A DNA stretch of 38,265 nt from a virus (taxonomy: Duplodnaviria > Heunggongvirae > Uroviricota > Caudoviricetes): positions 1 to 38,265 of the IMG/VR virus record IMGVR_UViG_2917870735_000001. One strand, 5' to 3'. The translations under genes and the position numbers were made by a program. Under the pieces are notes generated by a model. That model saw only the letters and a list, made by a program, of their open reading frames with translations, had not been told where the DNA came from and ran no database searches. This document shows positions 982 through 36,870 of the stretch, piece after piece. Each line of letters opens with the position of its first letter. Position 1 is the stretch's first letter.

Positions 982-3044
982 TAGATTGACTCCCCCATCT
1001 GAGCATCAGTCAATGCCTTGTGCCATATTCTGAAATTCCTGATATGACCAAATAAATGACGTAATCCGGCTGTAGTCTGGCCTCCAATACGGATAACTGC
1101 GGTGCTCTGAATACAGGACCATGTGGTTTTTGTTTCGCTGGATATACGCCCGTTACTTACTGCGCATGTAGACTGATCAGACTTTACACGCATCCCCATA
1201 ACCATTTTTTCAAGTGATGCATTTTCGTTTATCCGTCTGTTAGACCCACCAATATCGCAATAAGGAAATCCGTCGTAATCTGCTGAAGAACCGAAGCCAA
1301 GAATAATAGCCGCTCCGGTTTGATGACCGCCGGTATCAAAAACACGCGGTGCTGCATTTGGCGTTTTATACCAGTTCTTATGTACCTCACAAAGAACCGT
1401 AAAAGGAAGATTATAAAGATTATTCTTAATTGGGACTGTAACTATATCGCTTGCCCGTGTTACCGGTGCAGCCCCCGTAACAATAAAAGATGATGCGCCT
1501 GTACCAGCCTCAATCTGGGGAGTGGTTACATCGAGACAATCCCCTGATGCCACCATCTGACCTGTATCCGGAGAATACTGGACGAAACCACCAACCGTAT
1601 TTTCTGTTGTATCTGCTTTTAATGTAGCCTCAAAAAATATCCAGCCAGTTGCATCATCCTTAACAGACCTTGCTGTAACACGGCTTGTCTGGCCTGTCTT
1701 GCCAATTATGCGGGTGGTAAGGTTCAGGCTTGCTGCTCCTATTGATGTCCTTACATCCCCATCATAATGTTCAAATAAAATACGAACGGCGATATTATCA
1801 ACTTCACTTTTTACCCGACAGGATATAGTTACATACTTTTCGTCACCTGAAGTATCAACCCCTCCGGTACTTGAATACAGCCCTATAATGGTATGCGCTT
1901 TACTTGTGCCAACAATCGAATCCTGTACGACAAACCGGCCATAATTAAAACCGAAACTATCTGTGCCTGTTTCTGTAACGTCCAGTGAAGTTGACTTATT
2001 CCACTTCGAAGGGTCTGTACTGTTCGGGAAGAAGTTCGTTCTTTGCCCCTCAATAAGCAGGCCATCACGTTCAAATCGTGGCTCGTCAATGGCAGCCTCT
2101 GTCAGCACACCAGATTTATTAATGTAAGTTGCTTTTGATGCGCGTTTAAACTTTACAATCTTGTCGCCAGGCATTGTTATTTCATCGTCGCCAATAACAA
2201 TCTTTTTATATGACGGCGAAAAGCCCGTAATCATATCCAGTGAATCATTAAACGGAATCCAGACATCAGGCAGCGGCGGAACTATATTCACATATGGTTT
2301 TACAGCCACTTCCGCTGCAGCTTCTGCGCGGTCTGCCGCCGCTTCAGAACGTGTCGCCGCCGCGACGGCTTCATCCTTTTTCTGCCCGGCCTTTGTTGCC
2401 TCTGCTGCGGCCTCCTGCGCTTTTGTGGTGGCAGTTTCAGCCGCTGTTGTCGCTGATAATGCTTCACGACGTGCTGCGTCAGCATTTTCTGCAGATTTCT
2501 CCTCTGACGCCCGGGCATTAGTCTCTGAAAGTGATGCTGCTGTTGCTGCTTTTTCTGATGCTGTTTTAGAAGATGCAGCAGCTTTCTCGCTGTTGGCTGA
2601 ATTCGTCTCTGACGTTTTCGCCGCGTTCTTCGATGAAGCCGCTGCAGTTTCGGATTTCTTTGCCGCCGCTGCGCTCTGAGAGGCGGCTTCGGCGTTGCGT
2701 GCCGCTTCTTCCACCATTTCCTCAAAACGACGCAATGCCTCCGGCATGACATCATCTTCCGTCATGGCACCGAGAAAATCATTCAGCGTACCTGGTCTGG
2801 AACCTTCATAGACGGTAATGGTCCCGGCATGTGAAGGCGGAAAACCTTCAACCAGCAGGATAACGCTGTACTGGCCATACTCAACATCCATGCTGTAACG
2901 CCCGGCTTCATCCGGATTTTCAGAGGCCACCGTGTTCACCAGTACCGTGGTGCTGTTACGCTTTGCCTTCAGTTGAATAGTGCAGTTCTGTATTGGTTTT
3001 CCCGCACCATCTTTCAGCACACCTGAGATTTTTACTGCTGCCAT
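981..3044 (-). CDS. stf: side tail fibre protein (lambda Stf-like N-terminus, Ala/Ser-rich central repeats)
   Basis: N-terminus MAAVKISGVLKDGAGKPIQNCTIQLKA.. matches remembered lambda Stf N-terminus; ATG at 3044 (a GTG lies 6 nt upstream at 3050); long low-complexity A/S/T/E-rich collagen-like middle; position downstream of lom as in lambda. Confidence 0.85.
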   Translation of the reverse strand: MAAVKISGVLKDGAGKPIQNCTIQLKAKRNSTTVLVNTVASENPDEAGRYSMDVEYGQYSVILLVEGFPPSHAGTITVYEGSRPGTLNDFLGAMTEDDVMPEALRRFEEMVEEAARNAEAASQSAAAAKKSETAAASSKNAAKTSETNSANSEKAAASSKTASEKAATAASLSETNARASEEKSAENADAARREALSATTAAETATTKAQEAAAEATKAGQKKDEAVAAATRSEAAADRAEAAAEVAVKPYVNIVPPLPDVWIPFNDSLDMITGFSPSYKKIVIGDDEITMPGDKIVKFKRASKATYINKSGVLTEAAIDEPRFERDGLLIEGQRTNFFPNSTDPSKWNKSTSLDVTETGTDSFGFNYGRFVVQDSIVGTSKAHTIIGLYSSTGGVDTSGDEKYVTISCRVKSEVDNIAVRILFEHYDGDVRTSIGAASLNLTTRIIGKTGQTSRVTARSVKDDATGWIFFEATLKADTTENTVGGFVQYSPDTGQMVASGDCLDVTTPQIEAGTGASSFIVTGAAPVTRASDIVTVPIKNNLYNLPFTVLCEVHKNWYKTPNAAPRVFDTGGHQTGAAIILGFGSSADYDGFPYCDIGGSNRRINENASLEKMVMGMRVKSDQSTCAVSNGRISSETKTTWSCIQSTAVIRIGGQTTAGLRHLFGHIRNFRIWHKALTDAQMGESI

Positions 3045-3055
3045 ATCCACTCCAC

Positions 3056-3082
3056 AAAAAGGCCCGCCTGAACCGGCGGGCT
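3056..3082 (-). terminator. rho-independent terminator downstream of lom
   Basis: GC stem (cccgcc / ggcggg, about 7 bp) with a run of A on the plus strand at 3056..3060, i.e. T-run after the stem on the minus strand; 27 nt after the lom stop. Confidence 0.55.
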
Positions 3083-3108
3083 GTCATAACACTGTGTTAC
3101 CTGGCTAA

Positions 3109-3708
3109 TCAGAATTTATAACCGACACCCACGATGAAACCGTCAGTGCGCCAGTCGTCACTGCCGGAACCTTCATATGCAAGGTCAATGGCCACGGATT
3201 CGGTCGGGTTAAACTGCACACCCGCCCCCCACGCCAGAGACGTGTTGCTGTGGCGGTTGTCATCGCTTCCGGTCAGCACATCATGCATTTTCCCCTTGTT
3301 GTCGGTCACCTGAAGATAATCCCCGGAAAAAGTCGAAACACGGCTGTAAGCCACACCCGCCATCGCATAAGCACTGAACCATTCATTCACGCGTACAGAC
3401 GGCCCCGCCATCACGCTGAACCAGCGGTTACGCACTGAATCTTCATGCCAGCGGGTATCGCTGTAACGGGTAATCTGGCGATTCTTGTCTCCTGCATAGC
3501 TGAATGACGTCACCAGCCCCAGCGTGTCCGTAAATTCATAACGGTATTTCACGTTAATGCCCTTCAGGTCATCGTTGCCGGGCATATCAGTATGGGACTG
3601 AAGATACCCGCCGCTTAGTGTGGACTGATGCTCTGCTGCACTCGCTGGCGTACCAGCGGCGACCAGCCAGACTACTGCAGACAGAATAACAGCACATAAT
3701 TTACGCAT
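3109..3708 (-). CDS. lom: Lom/Ail-family outer membrane beta-barrel protein
   Basis: 199 aa with signal peptide ([24 protein letters not shown]) and C-terminal ..[25 protein letters not shown] identical in pattern to remembered lambda Lom; located between J and stf as in lambda. Confidence 0.9.
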
Positions 3709-3730
3709 AATTACCTCTCGCTTTTCTGCA

Positions 3731-3756
3731 ATAAAAAAGGCGCCATTTCTGGCGCC
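3731..3756 (-). terminator. rho-independent terminator between J and lom
   Basis: Perfect stem ggcgcc / ggcgcc (3739..3744 and 3751..3756) with a 6-nt loop, preceded on the plus strand by AAAAAA (3733..3738), i.e. T-run following the stem on the minus strand. Confidence 0.6.
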
Positions 3757-3775
3757 CGTATTTGGGTTATAAAAT

Positions 3776-6700
3776 TCAACTGATACTGATACCGGCTGTT
3801 GATTTCTTCATCACGACAACAAGAAGGTCGCTGATACTGGTCGTTGGCGTCCAGTTATTAGCACCATATGAAGAAACATTGAAAGTCAGGGTGACATGAC
3901 CGTGTCCGGCAGGCATATCAATGACGGATGAAAATACCCTGCTGACATCCGTCGCGGGTTGCTGAAAGATTTCCTGTCCGTTCTTCAACACCTGCAGCTT
4001 ACAGGTTGAATACCAGTATGACTGTTGGTTGTTGCTGTTGAAGTTTTCATGCTTACCACCGCGAAACAGAACGGGTGGGATTACTATCTGACGGTCAAAA
4101 GCCTGGTCATCGTACACAGTGACCGTTATTGTACCGCTGGCATAACTGCCATTTCTCGGAAAGGCTTTTCCCACCGTTTTGACAATATCACCTTCAATCT
4201 GGTTGGCAGACAGTTTTCCCAGAATCCGACAGTTCTGGTTAATCGTGACATTGTTGAGCGTCCCGGAGTTCGCATTCACGTTACCGCTGATATCGGCATT
4301 TTTCGCCGTCAGCCGCCCGTCCGGTGTCAGGGAAAATACCGGAGGATTACCGCCGCTGGTAATGGTTGGAGCCGTCAGATACTTCAGGAACACCTCGTTC
4401 ATGAATATCTGGTTGCCCTGCGCCACAAACATCGGCGTTTCATTTCCGTTTGCCGGGTCAATAAACGCGATACGGTTAGCGGCAACCAGGAACTGGCTCA
4501 GTTTACCTTCCTCCGTATCCTCCATGCTGAGGCCAAGCCCCGTGACATAATGCCTGCCGTCTTCGGTCTGCTCAATTTTGACGCCCCACATGGCATTCCA
4601 TTTATCGTTGGCATCTTTCCACTCTTTCGAAAACTCCTCCAGTTTGCTGGCGTTATCCTCCGTCAGCTCGACTTTTTCCAGCAGCTCCTTGCCGAGATGG
4701 GATTCAGTTATCTGGCCTTTGAAAAAATCCAGGTAACCTTCCGCATCATCGCTCGCCTGACCGACAGCCTCCACGAATGCCGATTTGCCAACAGTATTCA
4801 CACTGCGGATATAAAAATAATAATCATGGCCCGGCTTAATATTGATACTGGCAGCTATCCAGTACAGCGCCGTGCCAAGATAGCGGGCTGTGGTTTCAAC
4901 CTGCCTGATATCCGCAATCCGCTTTTCCGAGAACCAGAATTCAAACTGTACCGTCGGGTCATAAACGGCAAGATGCGGCGTTGCGGTTATCTGAAAATAG
5001 CCCGGCGTCAGATCAATCCTCGACGGTGCTGCCGGTGCGGCAATCCGGAACGATACCGACGCCGGATCGCCCTGCTGCCCCCACGCATTTACCGCCCGGA
5101 CTGTCAGCCTGTAGTTCCCCAACGCCAGTTGTGTGAAGCGGTATGTGGTTTCCGTCGTCCTGGCAGTGCTGACCAGCCGCTCACTGCCGTCATCCGCTGT
5201 CACGGTCAGACGGAGCAGGAAGCTCACGCCCTTCACCACCTTTGGTGTGTCCCATCGCGCCAGCACCTGATATTCCCCGCTATCTGCAGTGACTTCTGCG
5301 GTCAGGTGCTGCACTGCTGGCGGTGTGACACCGTTCACCGTGCCGCTCTGGTCACCGTCAAAGTGCGCCCCGTTATCCACGATGGCTTCTTTTTCCGGTA
5401 CATGCTGCACGGCGGTGATGGCATACGTACCGTCATCGTTCTCCCGGATACTCACACAGCGGAACAGGCGCTGGCGCAGCGTCGGCAGCTTCAGCCCCCA
5501 CACGCTGTATTCGGCAACGCCGTCAGGAACACGGCTCACTTTCACCTTCACGCCGTCGGTGACGGACTGGACCTCCACGCTGACCGGATTACCCTGCCCG
5601 TCAACCAGGCTTATCAGCGTGGTGCCGGAGGATGGCAGCGTGATTTCACGGTCGAGCGTCAGTGTCCGCGTCTGGCTGTTCACCGCCAGCACGCGCCCGC
5701 CGGTGCTGATACCGGCATAGTCATCATCACAGATTTCAATGACATCGCCCGGCACATGGCGAAGCCCTTCTGCGCCCACGCTGAAGTCCACGGTCTGCGT
5801 TTCCAGCAGCTCCGTTTTAATCAGCCACAGCCCGGCGCGGTGCGCCTGCCCCCGGCTGGTACAGCCAAAGGCATCCATCTTCGTGACGTTACGACCGTAA
5901 CGGGCAATGGCCTGTGTGTCCTCCACAAGCTCTGTCGCCGTCTCCCAGCCGTTATTCGGGTCAATCCAGTTCACCTCAACGGCAGTATGGCGGTCCTTCA
6001 GGGCGCTGAAGCTGTAGCGGAACGGCGCGCCATCATCCGGCATCACCACATTACTGCGGTTATAGGTCCACACCTTATCCGACGGTCGGTCCTGCACGAA
6101 CGTCAGCGTCTGCCCGTTCCATACCGGCATACAGCGCATCGCCGAGCAGAAATCACTGAGAACATCCCACGCCTTACGCTGTGTGGTCAGATACGCATTA
6201 CAGGTGATACGCGGCTCCGTGCCGCCAAAACCGTCCGGCACCGACTGATCGCAATGCTGGCCGATGACATACAGCGCCCATTTGTCCACATCCGCCGCAC
6301 CAAGACGTTTCCCCATGCCGTAGCGCGGATGGGTCAGCATATCCCACAGACACCATGCCATGTTGTTGCTGTATGCTGGCTTAAACGTTCCGTCCCAGAT
6401 ACCGCTGTATTGCCGCGTCTGCGGGTTATAGTTCGACGGCACCTGCAGAATGCGCCCGCGAAGATGATAATTACGGCTCACCTGCTGGCTGCCGAACTGC
6501 TCCGAGTCCACCTGCACGCCGACCAGTGCCGTGTTCGGGTAGCACTGTTTCACATCGATGATTTCGGTGTATGACGACCAGAGCGTTTTGTTCTGCAGCT
6601 GGTCTGTGGTGCTGTCCGGCGTCATCCTGCGCATCCGGATGTTGAACGGGCGCGGCGGCAGGTTATCCACCACCACCGAGGCCAGATACTGTGAAGTTGT

Positions 6701-24722: not shown

Positions 24723-26054
24723 ATGTTAGATACACTATCTTTCACTGAACGTGACGAGTTCCAACGAAGAAACATCGCTGAAAATATCATCAAGTTGCTA
24801 AAACCAGAGGCAGACATTTCACCACTGGTAATAGACGGCGCATGGGGAACAGGGAAAACAGAATTTAGTATCAAACTGAAAAATCTCATTATTGAGCAAG
24901 AAACCGAATCTAAAGTTGTTTATATTGATGCCTTTAAAGGGGATCATGCAGAATCTCCATTACTTCTCATAACCTCTGCAATTGCTAGCATTTTGCCTGA
25001 GGAAGAAAAACAACACTTCATTAAGAGATCACTTCCTGCAATTCGATTTGGTTTAAAAACGGTACTAAAAGCTGGTGCAGGTTGGTTTTTACGACAGGAG
25101 GCTAGTGAAGTTGCCGAAGAATTCCAAGATGCGATGAAGAAAGCAAGCAATGCAGCAATAGATGGGACTATTGAAAATTTGCTTGAAGACCATATGGAAT
25201 CAGAGAAAAACATAAATTCACTTAAATCTTGCATCGAAAGTATTTCAGAAAATCAAAAGATAGTAATTATAATTGATGAATTAGACCGATGTAAGCCGAG
25301 TTTTTCAACAAATGTCATTGAAACAATAAAACACATTTTTGACATCAATAATGTCTTTTTTATTTTAGTTACAAACACAGAACAATTAAAAGCATCGATA
25401 AATCATATTTATGGTTATAGTATTAACTCACAAAAGTATCTTGACAAGTTTATAAAATATACCATCACGCTTCCAGACACATGTTTAATAAATGGTCACG
25501 TCGTATGTAAAACATCTGCTATATATTGGAATTACCTTGTAGACAAGACAAAATCACTAAATGAAATTAATAGTTTATCTGGTAGATTTATCCGTGATTT
25601 AATTCAACGAACCAACTTATCCTTACGTGAAACACAAACTTTTTCACGCAATCTTAACATTTTTCAACTGTTAAACGACGAGGAGTACAAAAGCAGTGCT
25701 CCTTTAATAAATAGGATCTTTGTCGTAGCTGTCTTCATACATTGCTTTGGTGACAAGGAAAAAATAAAACAAGAAATTACCGCTGAATCTATATCTCATT
25801 TAGCAGACCTGCTTAACATAAAAGAAATACCTTATTCTTATGAGAGAAGATCGCAAATTCCTGAAATATCTATTGTATTCTTCGGAATAATTAAAGACAG
25901 CATTACTCTTAATGCGCGATTTGCCCCTAAAAGTGATGAAGAACTTAAAAGATTCACAAATGTTTATACTAATTATGATCACCTAAATTTTTGGAGTACT
26001 ACACCCAGAGAGTTATTGATAAAATATATCAATCAAATGTCATTCATTCAGTAA
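24723..26054 (+). CDS. KAP-family P-loop NTPase
   Basis: 443 aa; Walker A GAWGTGKT (about residues 39-46) and the KAP-characteristic Walker B ..IVIIIDELDRC..; markedly AT-rich relative to flanking phage genes; opposite strand to the late operon; strong terminator immediately downstream. Confidence 0.8.
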   Translation: MLDTLSFTERDEFQRRNIAENIIKLLKPEADISPLVIDGAWGTGKTEFSIKLKNLIIEQETESKVVYIDAFKGDHAESPLLLITSAIASILPEEEKQHFIKRSLPAIRFGLKTVLKAGAGWFLRQEASEVAEEFQDAMKKASNAAIDGTIENLLEDHMESEKNINSLKSCIESISENQKIVIIIDELDRCKPSFSTNVIETIKHIFDINNVFFILVTNTEQLKASINHIYGYSINSQKYLDKFIKYTITLPDTCLINGHVVCKTSAIYWNYLVDKTKSLNEINSLSGRFIRDLIQRTNLSLRETQTFSRNLNIFQLLNDEEYKSSAPLINRIFVVAVFIHCFGDKEKIKQEITAESISHLADLLNIKEIPYSYERRSQIPEISIVFFGIIKDSITLNARFAPKSDEELKRFTNVYTNYDHLNFWSTTPRELLIKYINQMSFIQ

Positions 26055-31593: not shown

Positions 31594-31690
31594 ATAACCT
31601 CCACATATTGCGTGATAAGCATATTATTTCACGCAAAAAATTTGCGCAAGTTGATTTGCTTAACGCGCAATAAAGAAATGTAATAAACGC
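31594..31690. promoter_or_regulatory. immunity operator/promoter region (OR-like) with divergent promoters
   Basis: Inverted repeat TTGCGTGA (31608..31615) / TCACGCAA (31629..31636); palindrome TTGCGCAA (31642..31649); further CGCAA half-site at 31666..31670. Candidate rightward-genes promoter on minus strand: -35 TTGCGC, 17-nt spacer, -10 TAATAT. No SD before cI ATG. Confidence 0.6.
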
Positions 31691-32383
31691 ATGAACATAG
31701 GAAACCGAGTCAGACAACTTCGCCAGGCGAAGAACATGAAAATCGCCGATCTTGCTGAAGCAATAGGAGTGGATGCGGCGAACATCTCACGTTTGGAAAC
31801 AGGCAAGCAGAAACAATTTACCGAACAAGCACTGAGCAATATTGCCAAGAGCTTAGGTGTTGATATTGCTGATCTCTTTACCATAGACATCAAAAGTAAT
31901 ACTGTATATAAAAACAGTATTAATGAGGATGTTACGCAGGTGAAGGATGTGTTCCGTATTGAAATGCTGGATGTCAGTGCCAGTGCGGGAAATGGCCTTA
32001 TCCAGGGCGGTGATGTCATTGATGTGATTCATGCCATCGAATACAGAACTGATAATGCTGTATCGATGTTTGGCGGACGACCAGCCAATCACATTAAAGT
32101 TATCAACGTTCGTGGAGACAGTATGTGTCCAACCATAGAGCCAGGAGATCTAATCTTCGTTGATGTCAGTATCAATCAGTTTGATGGAGATGGTATCTAT
32201 GTATTTGGTTTTGATGATAAAATTTACGTCAAACGACTGCAAATGATACCTGACAAATTGCTGGTGATTTCTGATAACCAGATTTACCGCGAATGGGGAA
32301 TTACCAGCGAAAATGAACACCGATTCATGGTCTTTGGAAAGGTCTTAATCAGCCAGTCACAAACCCTTAAGCGACACAATTAA
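31691..32383 (+). CDS. cI: CI-type repressor (HTH_XRE plus S24 LexA-like autopeptidase domain)
   Basis: 230 aa; N-terminal HTH (..MKIADLAEAIGVDAANISRLETGKQ..), C-terminal S24 domain with Ser motif (..VRGDSMCPTIEPGDLIFVD..) and Lys (..YVKRL..); divergent from cro-like gene. Confidence 0.9.
   Translation: MNIGNRVRQLRQAKNMKIADLAEAIGVDAANISRLETGKQKQFTEQALSNIAKSLGVDIADLFTIDIKSNTVYKNSINEDVTQVKDVFRIEMLDVSASAGNGLIQGGDVIDVIHAIEYRTDNAVSMFGGRPANHIKVINVRGDSMCPTIEPGDLIFVDVSINQFDGDGIYVFGFDDKIYVKRLQMIPDKLLVISDNQIYREWGITSENEHRFMVFGKVLISQSQTLKRHN
31900..31919. promoter_or_regulatory. SOS-box-like palindrome TACTGTATATAAAAACAGTA inside the cI coding sequence
   Basis: Matches the LexA box consensus TACTG(TA)5CAGTA at 18 of 20 positions, with both CTGT/ACAG arms and TA flanks intact; lies in the linker-coding part of cI. 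Confidence 0.4.
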
Positions 32384-32402: not shown

Positions 32403-32427
32403 AGCCACTAGAAGGTGGCTTTTCATT
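32403..32427 (+). terminator. terminator-like hairpin downstream of cI
   Basis: Stem agccac / gtggct (6 bp) with 6-nt loop followed by TTTTCATT; 20 nt after cI stop. Confidence 0.5.
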
Positions 32428-32436
32428 GCCCACAAC

Positions 32437-32490
32437 ATTGCACATTACGCAATAAAATACTTGCACAGCACGCAATTTAATTTTATCTTT
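32437..32490 (+). promoter_or_regulatory. second operator cluster (OL-like) with candidate rightward early promoter
   Basis: Same half-sites as OR: ATTGC..GCAAT (32437..32453) and TTGCA..CGCAA (32461..32475); candidate -35 TTGCAC (32461..32466) and AT-rich -10 around 32481..32490. Confidence 0.35.
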
Positions 32491-32941
32491 CTTTCCAGAC
32501 CAACAAACAAGGTCCTAACAAAATTTGGTTGTAACACGGCGTATGGCACATGCGTCATTAGCGGTCTGGAGACGTTAAAGGGGACAATCCACTCCTTGCT
32601 CGGGCAAACAAACCAGGTAGCCGGAATGTGCAAGTCAATGATGATGCTGACAAGACGCCTAACCAGCGTGGCGATTCGGTTTGACGCCTGGGAAGAGACC
32701 AGGGTGCAACGATAAGAGCATTTATGGAGCCGCAACAAAGTGTGGTGCCGTAACGGGCTAAGTGCTCTCAGCGTTGTGGTAATCCGCGAAATGGCGCGGC
32801 GGTAAGTATGGCGGGGTTACTCTTTCCCCGTTGAGGACACCGGGTTGTCAGGCTGACCATACGCCTGAGTGACAACCCCGCCACAACAGCCACTGCCTTG
32901 GCGGTATCAGTTTGTACCATTGCTTCCGGCTGGTACCGCTC

Positions 32942-33040
32942 TTTTTACAAAACAGAGAAGAGCATCACCGGACGACGGGCTCATAACCCAATCCATCCGG
33001 GCGGCTACTACCGCAGGTGTTCTTCTCTGTTTTGTGGAGA
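32942..33040. repeat. long inverted repeat: perfect 15-bp arms ACAAAACAGAGAAGA / TCTTCTCTGTTTTGT separated by 59 bp
   Basis: Arms at 32947..32961 and 33021..33035, extendable with G-U/A-U pairs to about 20 bp (32942..33040); lies in an ORF-poor leader upstream of the early-left genes. Confidence 0.5.
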
Positions 33041-33160
33041 AACTAACCGCCCCTGCGGGGGCATCTATTGAAACGTAATTGACTCAATAATCGCCGGATG
33101 GCGAGGGCTTCCTTTTCCCAAAATTCAGCGCGGTGCAGCGCATATAAAGTGGAGAACGAA

Positions 33161-33697
33161 ATGTCATTTATTAAAACTTTTTCCGGGAAGCATTTTTATT
33201 ATGACAAGATAAATAAAGACGACATCGTTATTAACGATATCGCGGTTTCCCTTTCAAATATCTGTCGCTTTGCTGGTCATCTTTCACACTTCTACAGCGT
33301 TGCCCAACATGCGGTGCTTTGCAGCCAGCTGGTACCGGAGGAGTTTGCTTTTGAAGCGTTAATGCATGATGCAACAGAAGCGTATTGCCAGGACGTCCCC
33401 GCACCACTGAAACGCCTTCTTCCTGACTATAAACGGATGGAAGAAAAAATAGACACCGTAATCCGTGAGAAATACGGGTTACCCCCGGTTATGAGTACGC
33501 CCGTGAAATATGCCGATCTCATCATGCTGGCAACCGAACGCCGCGATCTCGGGCTTGATGATGGCTCTTTCTGGCCTGTACTGGAAGGCATCTCGGCAAC
33601 AGAGATGTTCAAAGTGATTTCACTGGCACCGGGCCATGCCTACGGGATGTTTATGGAACGCTTCAACGAGTTATCGGAGTTACGCAAATGCGCATAA
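33161..33697 (+). CDS. HD-domain phosphohydrolase (YfbR-like 5'-deoxynucleotidase family)
   Basis: ATG at 33161 with GGAGA RBS; H..HD signature (..HAVLCSQLV..ALMHDATEAYCQDVPAPLKRLL..) parallels the remembered E. coli YfbR pattern (..YHDASEVLTGDLPTPVK..). Confidence 0.65.
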   Translation: MSFIKTFSGKHFYYDKINKDDIVINDIAVSLSNICRFAGHLSHFYSVAQHAVLCSQLVPEEFAFEALMHDATEAYCQDVPAPLKRLLPDYKRMEEKIDTVIREKYGLPPVMSTPVKYADLIMLATERRDLGLDDGSFWPVLEGISATEMFKVISLAPGHAYGMFMERFNELSELRKCA

Positions 33698-34566
33698 CTC
33701 ATGTAGTTAGTTTTTCTGGCGGGAGAACATCAGCATATCTTGTTCACCTGATGGAAGAACAAAGAAAGGCTGGTAACAGCGTCTGCTACATCTTTATGGA
33801 TACCGGTTGCGAACATCCGCTGACATATCGCTTTATTCGGGAGGTTGTGAAGTTCTGGGACAGACCACTAACTGTGTTGCAGGTAAATATCAATCCAGAG
33901 CTTGGGCAGCCAAATGGTTATACGGTATGGGAACCAAAGGATATTCAGACGCGAATGCCGGTGCTCAAGCCGTTTATGGACATGGTTAAAAAATATGGCA
34001 CGCCATACATCGGCGGCGAGTTCTGCACTGACAGATTAAAACTCGTCCCCTTCACCAAATACTGCGATGACCATTTCGGGAGAGGGAATTACATCACATG
34101 GCTGGGTATTCGCGCAGATGAACCCCGCAGACTGAAACCGAAATCGGGTGTCCGGTATCTTGCCGAGCTGTCAGATTTTGATAAGTCGGATGTTATCCGG
34201 TGGTGGCGTAAACAACCTTTTGATTTGCAAATCCCGGAGCACCTCGGGAACTGTGTTTTCTGCATCAAAAAGTCAACGCAAAAGCTGGGGCTTGCATGTA
34301 AAGACGAACCGGGTCTGATGCGAGTTTTTAAGGAACTGGTTACGGGTAAACACGTCAGAGATGGTCATCGCAGGACAGGTAAAGACGTTATGTACCGTTG
34401 TCACCTGACGCTTGACGGGATTGCCAGAATGTATACCGACAGTGACTACAAAAATTTGTATCAGGCGATGGTGCAGGCCAGGCGATTTGATACCGGGTCG
34501 TGTTCAGAGTCATGTGAAATCTTTGGTGATCAATTGGAATTGAAATTCGAAGAGGTAGGGGTATGA
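33688..34566 (+). CDS. PP-loop ATP pyrophosphatase superfamily protein (PAPS reductase-like)
   Basis: 292 aa; N-terminal PP-loop-like motif ..VVSFSGGRTSAY..; GGAG RBS; start overlaps HD gene 3' end by 10 nt. Confidence 0.6.
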   Translation: MRITHVVSFSGGRTSAYLVHLMEEQRKAGNSVCYIFMDTGCEHPLTYRFIREVVKFWDRPLTVLQVNINPELGQPNGYTVWEPKDIQTRMPVLKPFMDMVKKYGTPYIGGEFCTDRLKLVPFTKYCDDHFGRGNYITWLGIRADEPRRLKPKSGVRYLAELSDFDKSDVIRWWRKQPFDLQIPEHLGNCVFCIKKSTQKLGLACKDEPGLMRVFKELVTGKHVRDGHRRTGKDVMYRCHLTLDGIARMYTDSDYKNLYQAMVQARRFDTGSCSESCEIFGDQLELKFEEVGV

Positions 34567-34898
34567 CAACAAAAATTAACGACCATGCACTGCGTGAGCG
34601 CGCGCGGAATAAAGTGCAGAGCATTGAATTCGCCTTAACACATAGTGCATTCGCTGAGATTCGCGCTGAGCTTGAAGATGATTTAGAACTGGCACGGATT
34701 CTGGAAGTAGAGCCAGATGAACGCGCAGCCTATGAATTATTCATGGAAAAGCGTTTCAGCGACTCAGTAGATCGTCGGAAATCGGAAAATGGCGATAACG
34801 AGTACATGGCATGGGATATGACTCTCGGCTTGGTTGTCTGGCAGCAACGCGCTGGAATGAGTCTTTCAACTGTACAACCGCTGGAGAGTCAGCAATGA
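34563..34898 (+). CDS. hypothetical acidic protein
   Basis: 111 aa; ATG overlaps upstream stop (ATGA); GAGGTAGGGG RBS; no recognised motif. Confidence 0.45.
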   Translation: MTTKINDHALRERARNKVQSIEFALTHSAFAEIRAELEDDLELARILEVEPDERAAYELFMEKRFSDSVDRRKSENGDNEYMAWDMTLGLVVWQQRAGMSLSTVQPLESQQ

Positions 34899-35089
34899 AC
34901 AACTTAATGACAACCAAACAAGTCGCCGACTTCTGTGGCGTTTCAGTATCGACAGTTCTTCGCTGGAACAGCGTAAACAGGAGAACTGGCCAGAAATACA
35001 GGCCTGACTTTCCAGATCCTGATATTAAATCCTGCCCAAATAAATGGGCATCACGCAAGATATACAGGTTTGCGGGAGTTATTGAGTAA
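34895..35089 (+). CDS. AlpA/excisionase-like HTH protein
   Basis: 64 aa from ATG 34895 (GGAGAG RBS; overlaps upstream stop ATGA): MNNLMTTKQVADFCGVSVSTVLRWNS.. is the typical AlpA/Xis-family winged-helix pattern; lies near the integrase. Confidence 0.6.
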   Translation: MNNLMTTKQVADFCGVSVSTVLRWNSVNRRTGQKYRPDFPDPDIKSCPNKWASRKIYRFAGVIE

Positions 35090-35322
35090 TACGTAGTAGT
35101 TCAGATGTGAGCTAACACATCTATGGCACAGAGCTAAACCTAATCAGACTGTCTACTCTGTGCCTAAAGTGGATGTTGCAAATACCACCAGCGAAGAACC
35201 AAAATTAATGGTGCAGGATGATGCAGATAATTCTGATGAAAACACCCAGAATTTGTTACAATAAGTACATAGCATTAAAGTTTGTTATGAATGTCTAAAT
35301 GTAGCTTAATTCAGAGGTGATA

Positions 35323-36870
35323 ATGGGTGCCAATGGTTTACTAGCAGTCTTCGCCATACTTATTGCTTGGTATACTCTCTTAACGGATGAGAGACGTGTT
35401 GATTTAAGGTTACGCATATCTAAAATTAATATTATATTCATTATCTTTTTTATATCAACAATCTTAACAATTATATATTCTAAGGTATTGCTAAGTATTT
35501 TTCCGATAAAACCGATCCCTTGGATACTCGGTTTTAACGAAGATACATTGGCTTTTACTTGTCTTTGTATCATAATTACATTTTTTGGAATTAAAGTACT
35601 GGGCAAAAGACTACCAAAAGCAAACCTTACCTGTTGGATCAGCGTTTCAGAAATGTATCTGCGCGCAAAAAAAATAGAACAACTGGGATATCTTTTTGAT
35701 AAATATCACGAACAGCTATTTAATATAATTAGTAATAAAAAATGGTATGTTCGCGTACATAATTACTTAGTCCCTTCATTATCTTCCATTATAATGGATA
35801 AAGAGAAGGCAAAAAAAATACGATTCAAAAAAGCTAGAAAATTTCTGTCAAAGTTTTTCCCTTATGAAGACAAAAGACAAAATGCTATTCAATTAAATAT
35901 ATCCAATCTTCTGAAATCAAAGGTTTTTTCACATTATTTAATTGATACTTACCCTCACGTAGCTATGAAGGCCACCTGCTTACAGCTTAGATATAATTAT
36001 GAGTATAATACAAATTTCTTTACGTATTTAATATCTAACCCAAACAGCATTATGTATAGGGAGTTACGAGACAACCAAAATCGTTCATATACAGGGGAGT
36101 ATGCACTCGACGAAAGTAATGCCTTGCTTAATTTTTATTTAAATGATATTCGTATGGCGATAAATTTAGAAATATGGAAACCTGTGGGTGATTATGTCAT
36201 TAGCTACATAAAAAAACAAAAAGGGAGTTCTTGCTTTTACAATCATCCAGATAATTACTATTCAAGTAGTGATGAGCGTTGGGAATGCCCAATCTTCGTT
36301 GGATTGACGTTTTTCGATGTTATGGTATCTACAGCAATATTCAAACGCTCAAAAAACAATATGTGGCTCATGTATTATCGTTTTTTCCTAAAGGAAATTC
36401 TTGAGAGCTATGAAAAATCTAGCAGCATAGATATAAATAGAGAGTTCCCCATGCGATTTGATTATTTAATATATGAGCTAATCAGCCGTTGTAATATATG
36501 GGTAGGTGCAACAGAACACCTCAATTATGATAACTGGACAACAGAAGAGAAAGAGCAATCCCCAGAGTTCTTTGCCTCTACAACCTTGGGGGAAATGATG
36601 TATCTGATTATTACTTCAGAAAAAATGCATAACAATCAAAAGACATATCTTTTAGAAATCATTATTCAAAGAATGAACTCTCTTGATCAAAACAAGAAAC
36701 CTGCTTACTCCAAGGAAATCTTCAACAATCTTATCCGAGCATTCTCCCCTACTTCCATTGATATAAATGCAGTAAATAAATTACGGCAACTTTATAAAGG
36801 TGTTGATCATGTTCTAAAAAACAAAAATTCAACTTTTGAAGTTGAACTATCAAAATATCTTGACCAATAA
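35323..36870 (+). CDS. AT-rich membrane-anchored protein of unknown function (3 predicted N-terminal TM helices plus about 400-aa soluble domain)
   Basis: ATG at 35323 with AGAGGTGA RBS (ORF track GTG at 35317); GC content far below the prophage average; hydrophobic segments about residues 5-22, 36-58, 70-92; no recognisable catalytic motif; located between xis-like gene and integrase, convergent with int. Confidence 0.7.
   Translation: MGANGLLAVFAILIAWYTLLTDERRVDLRLRISKINIIFIIFFISTILTIIYSKVLLSIFPIKPIPWILGFNEDTLAFTCLCIIITFFGIKVLGKRLPKANLTCWISVSEMYLRAKKIEQLGYLFDKYHEQLFNIISNKKWYVRVHNYLVPSLSSIIMDKEKAKKIRFKKARKFLSKFFPYEDKRQNAIQLNISNLLKSKVFSHYLIDTYPHVAMKATCLQLRYNYEYNTNFFTYLISNPNSIMYRELRDNQNRSYTGEYALDESNALLNFYLNDIRMAINLEIWKPVGDYVISYIKKQKGSSCFYNHPDNYYSSSDERWECPIFVGLTFFDVMVSTAIFKRSKNNMWLMYYRFFLKEILESYEKSSSIDINREFPMRFDYLIYELISRCNIWVGATEHLNYDNWTTEEKEQSPEFFASTTLGEMMYLIITSEKMHNNQKTYLLEIIIQRMNSLDQNKKPAYSKEIFNNLIRAFSPTSIDINAVNKLRQLYKGVDHVLKNKNSTFEVELSKYLDQ

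Follow-up and report, generated by a model that had tools for sequence, protein, structure and literature searches.

Four coupled genes of an E. coli-type lambdoid prophage, yfdR, ninC, a yfdT-like gene and xis, appear to be separate mosaic modules of an early-left operon

We analysed 38,265 nucleotides of a Caudoviricetes virus (IMG/VR record IMGVR_UViG_2917870735_000001, positions 1 to 38,265); this whole stretch is called the window below. The window is a complete lambdoid prophage of ~38 kb with the integrase at its right end. Our subject is a block of four plus-strand open reading frames (ORFs), each overlapping the next, that spans positions 33161-35089 (Table 1): yfdR, which encodes an HD-domain protein; ninC, which encodes a PP-loop protein; a yfdT-like gene, which encodes a small acidic protein; and xis, which encodes an excisionase. 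A previous sequence-only reading of this DNA had described the first three as translationally coupled genes downstream of an OL-like region, and had proposed that the two enzymes form a DNA-modification or anti-defence module. The three ORFs lie as it placed them, with a 10-nt overlap between yfdR and ninC (33688-33697) and ATGA overlaps between ninC and the yfdT-like gene (34563-34566) and between the latter and xis; it had left out the fourth coupled gene, xis, and the gene names yfdR, lambda ninC and yfdT. A plausible Shine-Dalgarno sequence precedes every start codon of the block, and a longer in-frame ORF for yfdR begins at 33098. Ratios of nonsynonymous to synonymous substitution (dN/dS) were low, at 0.09-0.13 for yfdR, 0.07-0.12 for ninC and 0.25-0.41 for the yfdT-like gene, so all three are taken as real genes under purifying selection. 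The locus is already known: the genes and their exact arrangement are present and annotated in public E. coli genomes, in which RefSeq names the block 'yfdR: 5'-deoxynucleotidase', 'phosphoadenosine phosphosulfate reductase family protein' and 'hypothetical/DNA-binding protein'.

The gene products were identified by blastp against reference loci (K-12, lambda, cdtI, E. coli 165 and VT2phi_272). The HD protein shared 96% identity over all 178 residues with E. coli K-12 YfdR (b2361, cryptic prophage CPS-53) and 97% with cdtI gp37 and the E. coli 165 copies. The PP-loop protein was 79% identical to lambda NinC over 285 of 292 residues and 92% identical to the 'NinC' of Shiga toxin (Stx) phage VT2phi_272; judged by its sequence, it is an orthologue of lambda NinC. 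The acidic protein showed 65% identity to K-12 YfdT over its C-terminal 79 residues and 83% to WP_000206055, the hypothetical protein that follows ninC in E. coli 165. The excisionase was 97% identical to that of phage cdtI and gave weak HTH_17/MerR-type helix-turn-helix matches. The closest known arrangements are yfdQ-yfdR-yfdS-yfdT-torI of CPS-53 (KpLE1) and the early-left region of cdtI, which occupy the same operon position, between repressor and xis, and share the overlap of yfdR with the next gene. Unlike them, the window is without yfdP and yfdQ, ninC fills the yfdS slot, and the YfdT-like protein differs at its N-terminus, has lost 4 aa and is substituted at several conserved positions.

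Table 1 Features of the early-left region and other ORFs of the window
Feature	Position	Strand	Description
cI-type repressor gene	31691-32383		HTH_3 and Peptidase_S24 domains
Terminator-like hairpin	32403-32420	+	7-bp stem AGCCACT/GGTGGCT, then TTTTCATT; directly after the repressor gene
OL-like site, 15 nt	32439-32453	+	TTGCACATTACGCAA
OL-like site, 15 nt	32462-32476	+	TTGCACAGCACGCAA
-35 element of possible PL	32462-32467		TTGCAC; followed by a 17-nt spacer and TATCTT
Leader	32497-33160		~660 nt, between putative PL and yfdR; no convincing ORF
Structured part of leader	32942-33062	+	long branched hairpin (32942-33040), then GC hairpin (33049-33062)
yfdR (HD protein)	33161-33697	+	178 aa; ATG start, GGAG-type ribosome-binding site
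ninC (PP-loop protein)	33688-34566	+	292 aa; SFSGGRTS = residues 8-15
yfdT-like gene	34563-34898	+	111 aa, acidic, predicted all-helical
xis (excisionase)	34895-35089	+	64 aa; last of the coupled block; phrog_1553 'excisionase' 7.7e-36
517-aa ORF	35317-36870	+	between xis and int
443-aa ORF	24723-26054	+	within a long run of minus-strand phage genes

The boundaries of these genes carry traces of exchange. The end of yfdR and the start codon that follows it, ...CGCAAATGCGCAT(A/G)A, were identical whether the next gene was yfdS, as in K-12 and cdtI, or ninC, as in the window and E. coli 165, and ninC-specific sequence starts right after ATGCGCAT. Because yfdR is linked to the unrelated yfdS with an identical overlap and start codon (ATGCGCAT), we regard the 10-nt overlap as inherited, a feature of the 3' end of yfdR that did not evolve for the pair; as a sign of functional coupling between the two enzymes, for which it had been taken, it does not hold. 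On the other side of ninC, the ATGA overlap is kept with a different downstream gene in VT2phi_272. Upstream of yfdR, positions 33049-33200 match cdtI 4455-4605, which shows yfdP-yfdQ to be absent from the window, while the sister prophages carry yfdP and yfdQ (DUF2303) between repressor and yfdR (cdtI 3161-4455; L242 3219-4471). The deletion junction relative to cdtI (~33049-33060) coincides with the small GC hairpin at the end of the structured leader. Set beside cdtI and the sister prophage L242, the natural reading of the window is a yfdQRST-type operon after cargo exchange, with ninC in the yfdS slot. The four genes would then be separately evolving modules, joined at gene boundaries by lambdoid mosaic recombination.

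The distribution of the genes was examined at several distances. Among 80 close IMG/VR relatives of ninC, yfdR lay directly upstream in ~36, ninB lay upstream in ~24 (the lambda nin-type setting) and ~8 had the Stx-type setting, in which a DUF2303 protein and a hypothetical protein are encoded upstream. The genes 3' of yfdR-ninC vary as well, and include yfdT-like genes, two small Stx-type ORFs and genes for DUF551 proteins. In a census of 5426 complete E. coli genomes, in which a probe was scored as present if at least 80% of it was found, yfdR occurred in 2948 genomes, ninC in 537, the 401-bp yfdR-ninC junction in 283 and the whole four-gene block in 163; ~90% of the yfdR copies were without ninC. 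Since the offset at the yfdR-ninC junctions is always the same, they can be traced to a single event and its later spread. Of 50,697 phage records, none held at least 80% of positions 32900-35300. NinC was present in 581 phage records (Vibrio 341, Stx2a 62, Salmonella 62) and YfdR in 329, mostly from phages of Bacillus, Caulobacter and Rhizobium but also of Pseudomonas and others. For diverged NinC homologues (~50% identity), a YfdR-like ORF was found within 5 kb at 2 of 79 loci, both times on the opposite strand, and 1 of 43 species-level genome loci (≥ 6 kb) contained a YfdR-like gene, which was not adjacent. These results, different distributions of the two families and rare co-occurrence outside one E. 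coli prophage lineage, went against the proposed pairing; the evidence says that the HD and PP-loop genes would not form a functional pair, or would do so at most within one lineage.

The block stands behind a control region of lambdoid type. The hairpin that directly follows the repressor gene would separate repressor transcription from the early-left operon. Both of the 15-nt sites beyond it are 80-81% complementary to positions 31606-31621 in the cI-cro intergenic region, which makes the label 'OL-like region' of the sequence-only reading a fair one, and operator sites upstream of the block imply early, repressor-controlled expression. A possible PL promoter may lie here (Table 1); it was not among the promoters listed by the promoter scan. 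Within the leader, positions 32517-33060 are 96% identical to cdtI 2618-3161, upstream of yfdP/yfdQ. The leader hairpin has an RNA minimum free energy of -63.2 kcal/mol (z = -7.2, 200 shuffles), and no useful Rfam match was obtained with the whole window at gathering thresholds or with the leader at E ≤ 1.

Profile searches confirmed the YfbR-like HD assignment and placed the protein in the YfdR type: it matched phrog_318 at 1.6e-107 and scored 24.0 bits against Pfam PF12917 (YfbR-like HD), just below the cut-off of 25.9. The YfbR housekeeping 5'-deoxynucleotidase itself (NCBIfam equivalog NF003009) was rejected at 20.2 bits against a cut-off of 122, which leaves a YfdR-type paralogue. The HD metal motif H...HD...D is intact (H50, H69-D70 and D119) and aligned to the same residues of PDB 2gz4 (5.5e-12); the match in the PDB sequence search was the structural-genomics protein Atu1052. 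K-12 YfdR has weak deoxynucleoside monophosphate (dNMP) phosphatase activity and binds DnaA domain I, and multicopy yfdQ and yfdR together with either yfdS or yfdT inhibit initiation at oriC, a replication-inhibition phenotype for which yfdQ is needed (Noguchi and Katayama, PMC4776307). Since K-12 YfdR works with YfdQ and YfdS or YfdT, the YfdT-like protein is the likely partner of YfdR in the window. After induction or infection, the two proteins may interfere with host replication initiation or nucleotide handling, and a damping of host initiation by them could reasonably be inferred by analogy with K-12.

The YfdT-like protein is acidic, as had been noted from the sequence, with a pI of 4.74 and 22 acidic against 14 basic residues. 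Its family comprised 237 homologues, and all the listed ones were from E. coli or Shigella. A conserved core of ~50 aa, (A)YELFMEKRF..VDRR...NGDNEYMAWDM.LG..VWQQRAG, is of the phrog_660 type, and its 25 invariant columns are kept in the window copy; in many cases the core forms the N-terminal portion of a DUF551 protein. The AlphaFold2 (AF2) model was helical and weak (predicted local distance difference test, pLDDT, 63; predicted template modelling score, pTM, 0.35), and the PDB sequence search with this protein gave no match. The identical allele is present on at least 24 public contigs. The exact 111-aa copy occurs in E. coli assemblies, where the same prophage sits beside yjjG-rimI-holD.

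NinC belongs to a large family, with 5066 homologues at E ≤ 1e-3 that formed 1566 clusters at 50% identity. The PP-loop superfamily call of the sequence-only reading was supported by phrog_424 (5e-89), phrog_33262 (~1e-89) and a 33-bit match to Pfam PF01507 (PAPS_reduct; PAPS, phosphoadenosine phosphosulfate), and profile searches placed the protein in the lambda NinC family. In a 29-member alignment reaching down to 51% identity, the PP-loop residues S8, S10, G11, G12, R13 and S15 were invariant, as were six cysteines: C113, C126, C189-x2-C192 (GNCxFCxKK) and C272-x3-C276 (GSCSESCE). Lambda NinC (Orf290) has the same PP-loop and all six cysteines, and its homology to the window protein runs over the full length; its gene lies after ninB in the rightward delayed-early nin region, whereas in the window, as in Stx phages, ninC is in the leftward early operon. 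The AF2 model was confident (pLDDT 85, pTM 0.83) except for the cysteine-bearing tail 266-292, which was disordered, and the PP-loop structural neighbours of the model include the Fe-S sulfur-insertion enzymes LarE, NcsA and TtuA. The six invariant cysteines point to a metal or Fe-S centre together with a flexible tail that bears cysteine. Lambda ninC is dispensable in K-12 (PMC10695390), in agreement with the earlier remark that neither enzyme is an obvious part of the core lambdoid cycle, and lambda NinC had no two-hybrid partners (PMC3224144).

Two side observations concern the same gene. The window NinC carries R59 at a position that is I, V or L in its relatives and C238 at one that is mostly G, with the PP-loop and the six invariant cysteines intact. 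In addition, lambda-type ninC with the same 79% identity was met in unrelated assemblies (Pseudomonas, Kitasatospora, Oceanobacillus, Bradyrhizobium, Shewanella, Enterococcus and others), on contigs that were ~48.4 kb long or tiny, several of them with coverage near 1; some of these contigs also hold lambda P, NinB and NinG. These copies, which made up many of the top hits in the contig scan behind the 43 species-level loci, are most likely contamination with lambda control DNA and were left out of that count.

The relation of NinC to DNA modification was assessed with defence-library profiles. Among the 29 NinC members, SspD matched 29 (best 3.7e-17), BrxP 28 and DndC 10; the three known systems of DNA phosphorothioation have these proteins as their PP-loop components. 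For the window protein the E-values were 7.4e-15 with SspD, where only residues 5-152 aligned, to model positions 2-125 of 277, 1.3e-4 with BrxP and 1.6e-3 with DndC. SspD was the best match in the library. By its PP-loop domain NinC may be related to these proteins, which are cysteine-rich enzymes of the ATP pyrophosphatase type and probably depend on a metal or Fe-S centre, but the matches fall short of placing it in their family. NinC differs from them in that the N-terminal half alone aligns and in that the window ninC is phage-borne and solitary, without a linked desulfurase, ATPase or DNA-targeting partner.

A published experiment bears on the family. Vibrio phage 44E38.1 encodes p0018, a 'Dam methyltransferase with PAPS reductase domain' in which the N-terminal 280 aa are a NinC module with the same motifs, and the window NinC is homologous to this module (55% identity, 96% query coverage, E = 4.8e-96). 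When p0018 and p0019 were moved into a sensitive sister phage, it infected a Dnd-carrying host, and this recipient already had a stand-alone Dam that is 96% identical to the Dam domain of p0018 (Piel et al., bioRxiv 10.1101/2021.05.05.442762). In our comparison p0019 is a DUF6475 protein encoded after an O-like initiator, in the replication module, and the order of the Vibrio locus (O-like, DUF6475, NinC-Dam, NinB-like, NinG) is that of a nin-type region; p0019 was accordingly rejected as a YfdR-like protein or as a counterpart of the acidic protein. Because the recipient already had Dam and p0019 is a DUF6475 protein in a nin-type region, the NinC module is probably the likelier determinant of Dnd escape.

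Associations between NinC and DNA methyltransferases recur across the family. The loci compared held 34 fusions of NinC to a methyltransferase, with Dam (PF05869) as the partner in 30 and the unrelated D12 class (PF02086) in 4; this count is inflated by shared ancestry, as the NinC domain of the fusion protein had served as the query that retrieved most of the loci. Adjacent pairs comprised 12 with the methyltransferase gene before ninC and 2 with ninC first, and include lambda-like phages in which ninB and ninC flank a Dam gene; fusions in the reverse order, methyltransferase then NinC, were found among the cluster representatives P0122 and P0123. Two methyltransferase families and both domain orders imply at least three independent fusion events. 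The fusions argue that NinC acts on the same substrate, DNA, and for the same purpose, evasion of modification-dependent immunity. Other neighbours of the diverged homologues serve replication and recombination (O-like initiator, NinB, DnaB, RusA, single-stranded DNA-binding protein and exonuclease). PAPS-reductase genes have been noted in anti-defence operons regulated by Aca (2026 survey, PMC13551039), and a 2024 paper lists lambda among the mobile elements with such homologues and urges further study (PMC11437467). Our literature searches on NinC function, phage PAPS reductases and anti-Dnd proteins returned only the link of Piel et al. and general remarks of this kind. JSS1_004, which came up in the anti-Dnd search, is unrelated, a T7 gp0.7-like kinase. 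Of the three genes, ninC is the only one with good comparative support for a part in DNA modification or counter-defence.

Two further ORFs of the window were noted. The 517-aa ORF between xis and int has a GC content of 0.29-0.36, against ~0.47 in its flanks, and hydrophobic N-terminal segments; its sole match was phrog_13820, and searches of Pfam, NCBIfam and PADLOC returned nothing. Other genes occupy the slot in E. coli 165 and cdtI, so that it looks like a variable cargo or defence hotspot. The 443-aa ORF might be a moron or else an insertion element.

Other explanations were weighed against this evidence. The HD hydrolase and PP-loop enzyme could act together, possibly along with the acidic protein, in a single pathway for the modification of phage DNA or nucleotides; the HD protein might, for example, prepare or recycle a nucleotide for adenylation or thiolation by the PP-loop enzyme. 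Such a pathway would fit genes that are translationally coupled and co-transcribed, a junction kept in 283 E. coli genomes and in ~36 of 80 close IMG/VR loci, and one diverged Erwiniaceae prophage (L202) with both genes in one operon. We nevertheless consider it unlikely, since the overlap is inherited from yfdR-yfdS, all E. coli junctions share one offset and so one spread event, ~90% of yfdR copies are without ninC, no HD gene lies beside ninC in lambda, in Stx and Vibrio phages or at most other homologues, and the two families differ in taxonomic range. The distribution alone is still compatible with a lineage-specific link between yfdR and ninC. YfdR might instead be a counter-defence enzyme of its own that destroys an immune signalling nucleotide, as made by the cyclic oligonucleotide-based system CBASS, Pycsar, Thoeris or type III CRISPR, or that counters defences acting by depletion of deoxynucleoside triphosphates (dNTPs). 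Its intact metal site, its early repressor-controlled expression, the spread of its family through unrelated phages, jumbo phages included, and the weakness of the reported dNMP activity, which leaves room for another substrate (PMC4776307), are all consistent with this. All family matches of YfdR are nevertheless to YfbR-like 5'-deoxynucleotidases, PADLOC returned no match for it (nor for the small protein or the 517-aa ORF), literature searches gave no published link of this HD subfamily to cyclic or ADP-ribose-type signals, and the sole protein-level result for the orthologue is DnaA binding (PMC4776307). The suggestion that the HD protein degrades a host signalling nucleotide found no support in this evidence, and we hold a counter-defence role of YfdR to be quite improbable.

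Two rival functions of NinC remain to be compared. As a tRNA thiolase or lysidine-type modifier (compare TtcA, TtuA, NcsA and TilS), NinC would act on RNA and retune or protect the translation of host or phage, for instance against anticodon nucleases. The sequence profiles group its PP-loop domain with SspD, BrxP and DndC, DNA methyltransferases recur as its fusion partners or neighbours, it is surrounded by genes of DNA replication and recombination, and a homologue is genetically linked to Dnd escape; an RNA substrate is therefore unlikely. A true PAPS or adenosine phosphosulfate (APS) reductase, carried as an auxiliary metabolic gene to boost host sulfate assimilation, is what the database name 'phosphoadenosine phosphosulfate reductase' and the PHROG category 'moron, auxiliary metabolic gene' would imply, and the best solved structural neighbours of NinC are indeed APS and PAPS reductases. 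We think this highly improbable. The catalytic motif of CysH is ECGLH, whereas the C-terminal motif of NinC is GSCSESCE; the Pfam match covers only the N-terminal third of the protein and profile positions 2-65 of 175; the PDB sequence search with NinC gave no more than weak CysH hits; identity to CysH (PDB 2goy, 6vpu and 1sur) is 18-22%, with Foldseek template modelling (TM) scores of 0.36-0.49 and another C-terminal half and cysteine pattern; and the genomic context is DNA metabolism. Membership in CysH was rejected because the scores fell below the family cut-offs (NCBIfam equivalog PRK02090, 18.7 bits against 154).

On balance we consider it probable that the locus is the repressor-controlled early-left operon of a cdtI/CPS-53-type E. 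coli lambdoid prophage integrated beside yjjG, and that it consists of four independent mosaic modules, not a two-enzyme pathway, in which YfdR with the YfdT-like protein and NinC would have the separate roles proposed here. NinC would be a stand-alone PP-loop enzyme in the yfdS slot that belongs to the phosphorothioation clade (SspD, BrxP, DndC). DndC-type enzymes act through an adenylated DNA intermediate, as known from the Tdp/Dnd literature. NinC may likewise use ATP through its PP-loop to adenylate a nucleic-acid substrate, and its cysteine or Fe-S centre might deliver sulfur, or make a related substitution, on phage DNA; alternatively, it may engage the Dnd or Ssp modification machinery of the host. 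Phage DNA would thereby escape phosphorothioate (PT)-dependent and other modification-dependent immunity (Dnd, Ssp, bacteriophage exclusion (BREX) type 4), and many NinC relatives would do so beside, or fused to, a Dam-type methyltransferase. The part of the earlier proposal that spoke of DNA modification or anti-defence is thus supported for the PP-loop gene, as a candidate enzyme of that kind, on the profile affinities, the p0018 homology and the methyltransferase fusions, and falls for the HD and PP-loop genes as a pair.

Several observations weigh against parts of this explanation. About half of the ninC-bearing E. coli genomes (283/537) hold the yfdR-ninC junction, so that within this lineage the two modules may have a functional link. 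For the proposed action of YfdR, yfdQ is deleted in the window though required for the K-12 replication phenotype, and the YfdT-like copy lacks 4 aa in the IALAS region and carries the substitutions G66S, R73K, A74S, K75E and W90L, at five positions that are nearly invariant in the family. For NinC, the match to SspD is limited to the N-terminal half (residues 5-152). The partners on which DndC and SspD depend, a dedicated cysteine desulfurase, the DndD/SspC ATPase and DndE/SspB, are missing from the window, in which the neighbours yfdR, the yfdT-like gene and xis had no PADLOC hits to them, and none was seen among the common neighbours of the 79 diverged homologues. In the Vibrio experiment two genes were transferred, one of them, from a nin-like region, encoding a PAPS module in fusion with a Dam-type methyltransferase, whereas the window NinC stands alone; tblastn found no Dam- or D12-type methyltransferase anywhere in the window. 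The role suggested for NinC comes from comparison.

Annotated copies of all three genes exist in hundreds to thousands of E. coli genomes, and an activity has been published for yfdR; the remaining value of the locus lies in the function of NinC, a large and strongly conserved phage family that includes a classic lambda gene. Three lines connect it with DNA modification and counter-defence, namely its resemblance to the phosphorothioation clade, the published connection with Dnd escape and recurrent fusion to DNA adenine methyltransferases, and the fusion pattern adds weight to this reading. The hypothesis is open to a direct and cheap test with the lambda genetics and the cloned Dnd and Ssp systems already available. 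We tentatively suggest, as a possibility that falls short of being probable, that members of the NinC family, lambda NinC included, are stand-alone DNA-directed PP-loop/Fe-S enzymes that install a phosphorothioate or adenylate-mediated (thio) mark, or hijack the PT machinery of the host, and that with Dam-type methyltransferases they may provide a two-mark strategy against Dnd, Ssp and BREX type 4. The window copy would then have moved to an immediate-early leftward operon, where it would be made before restriction acts.

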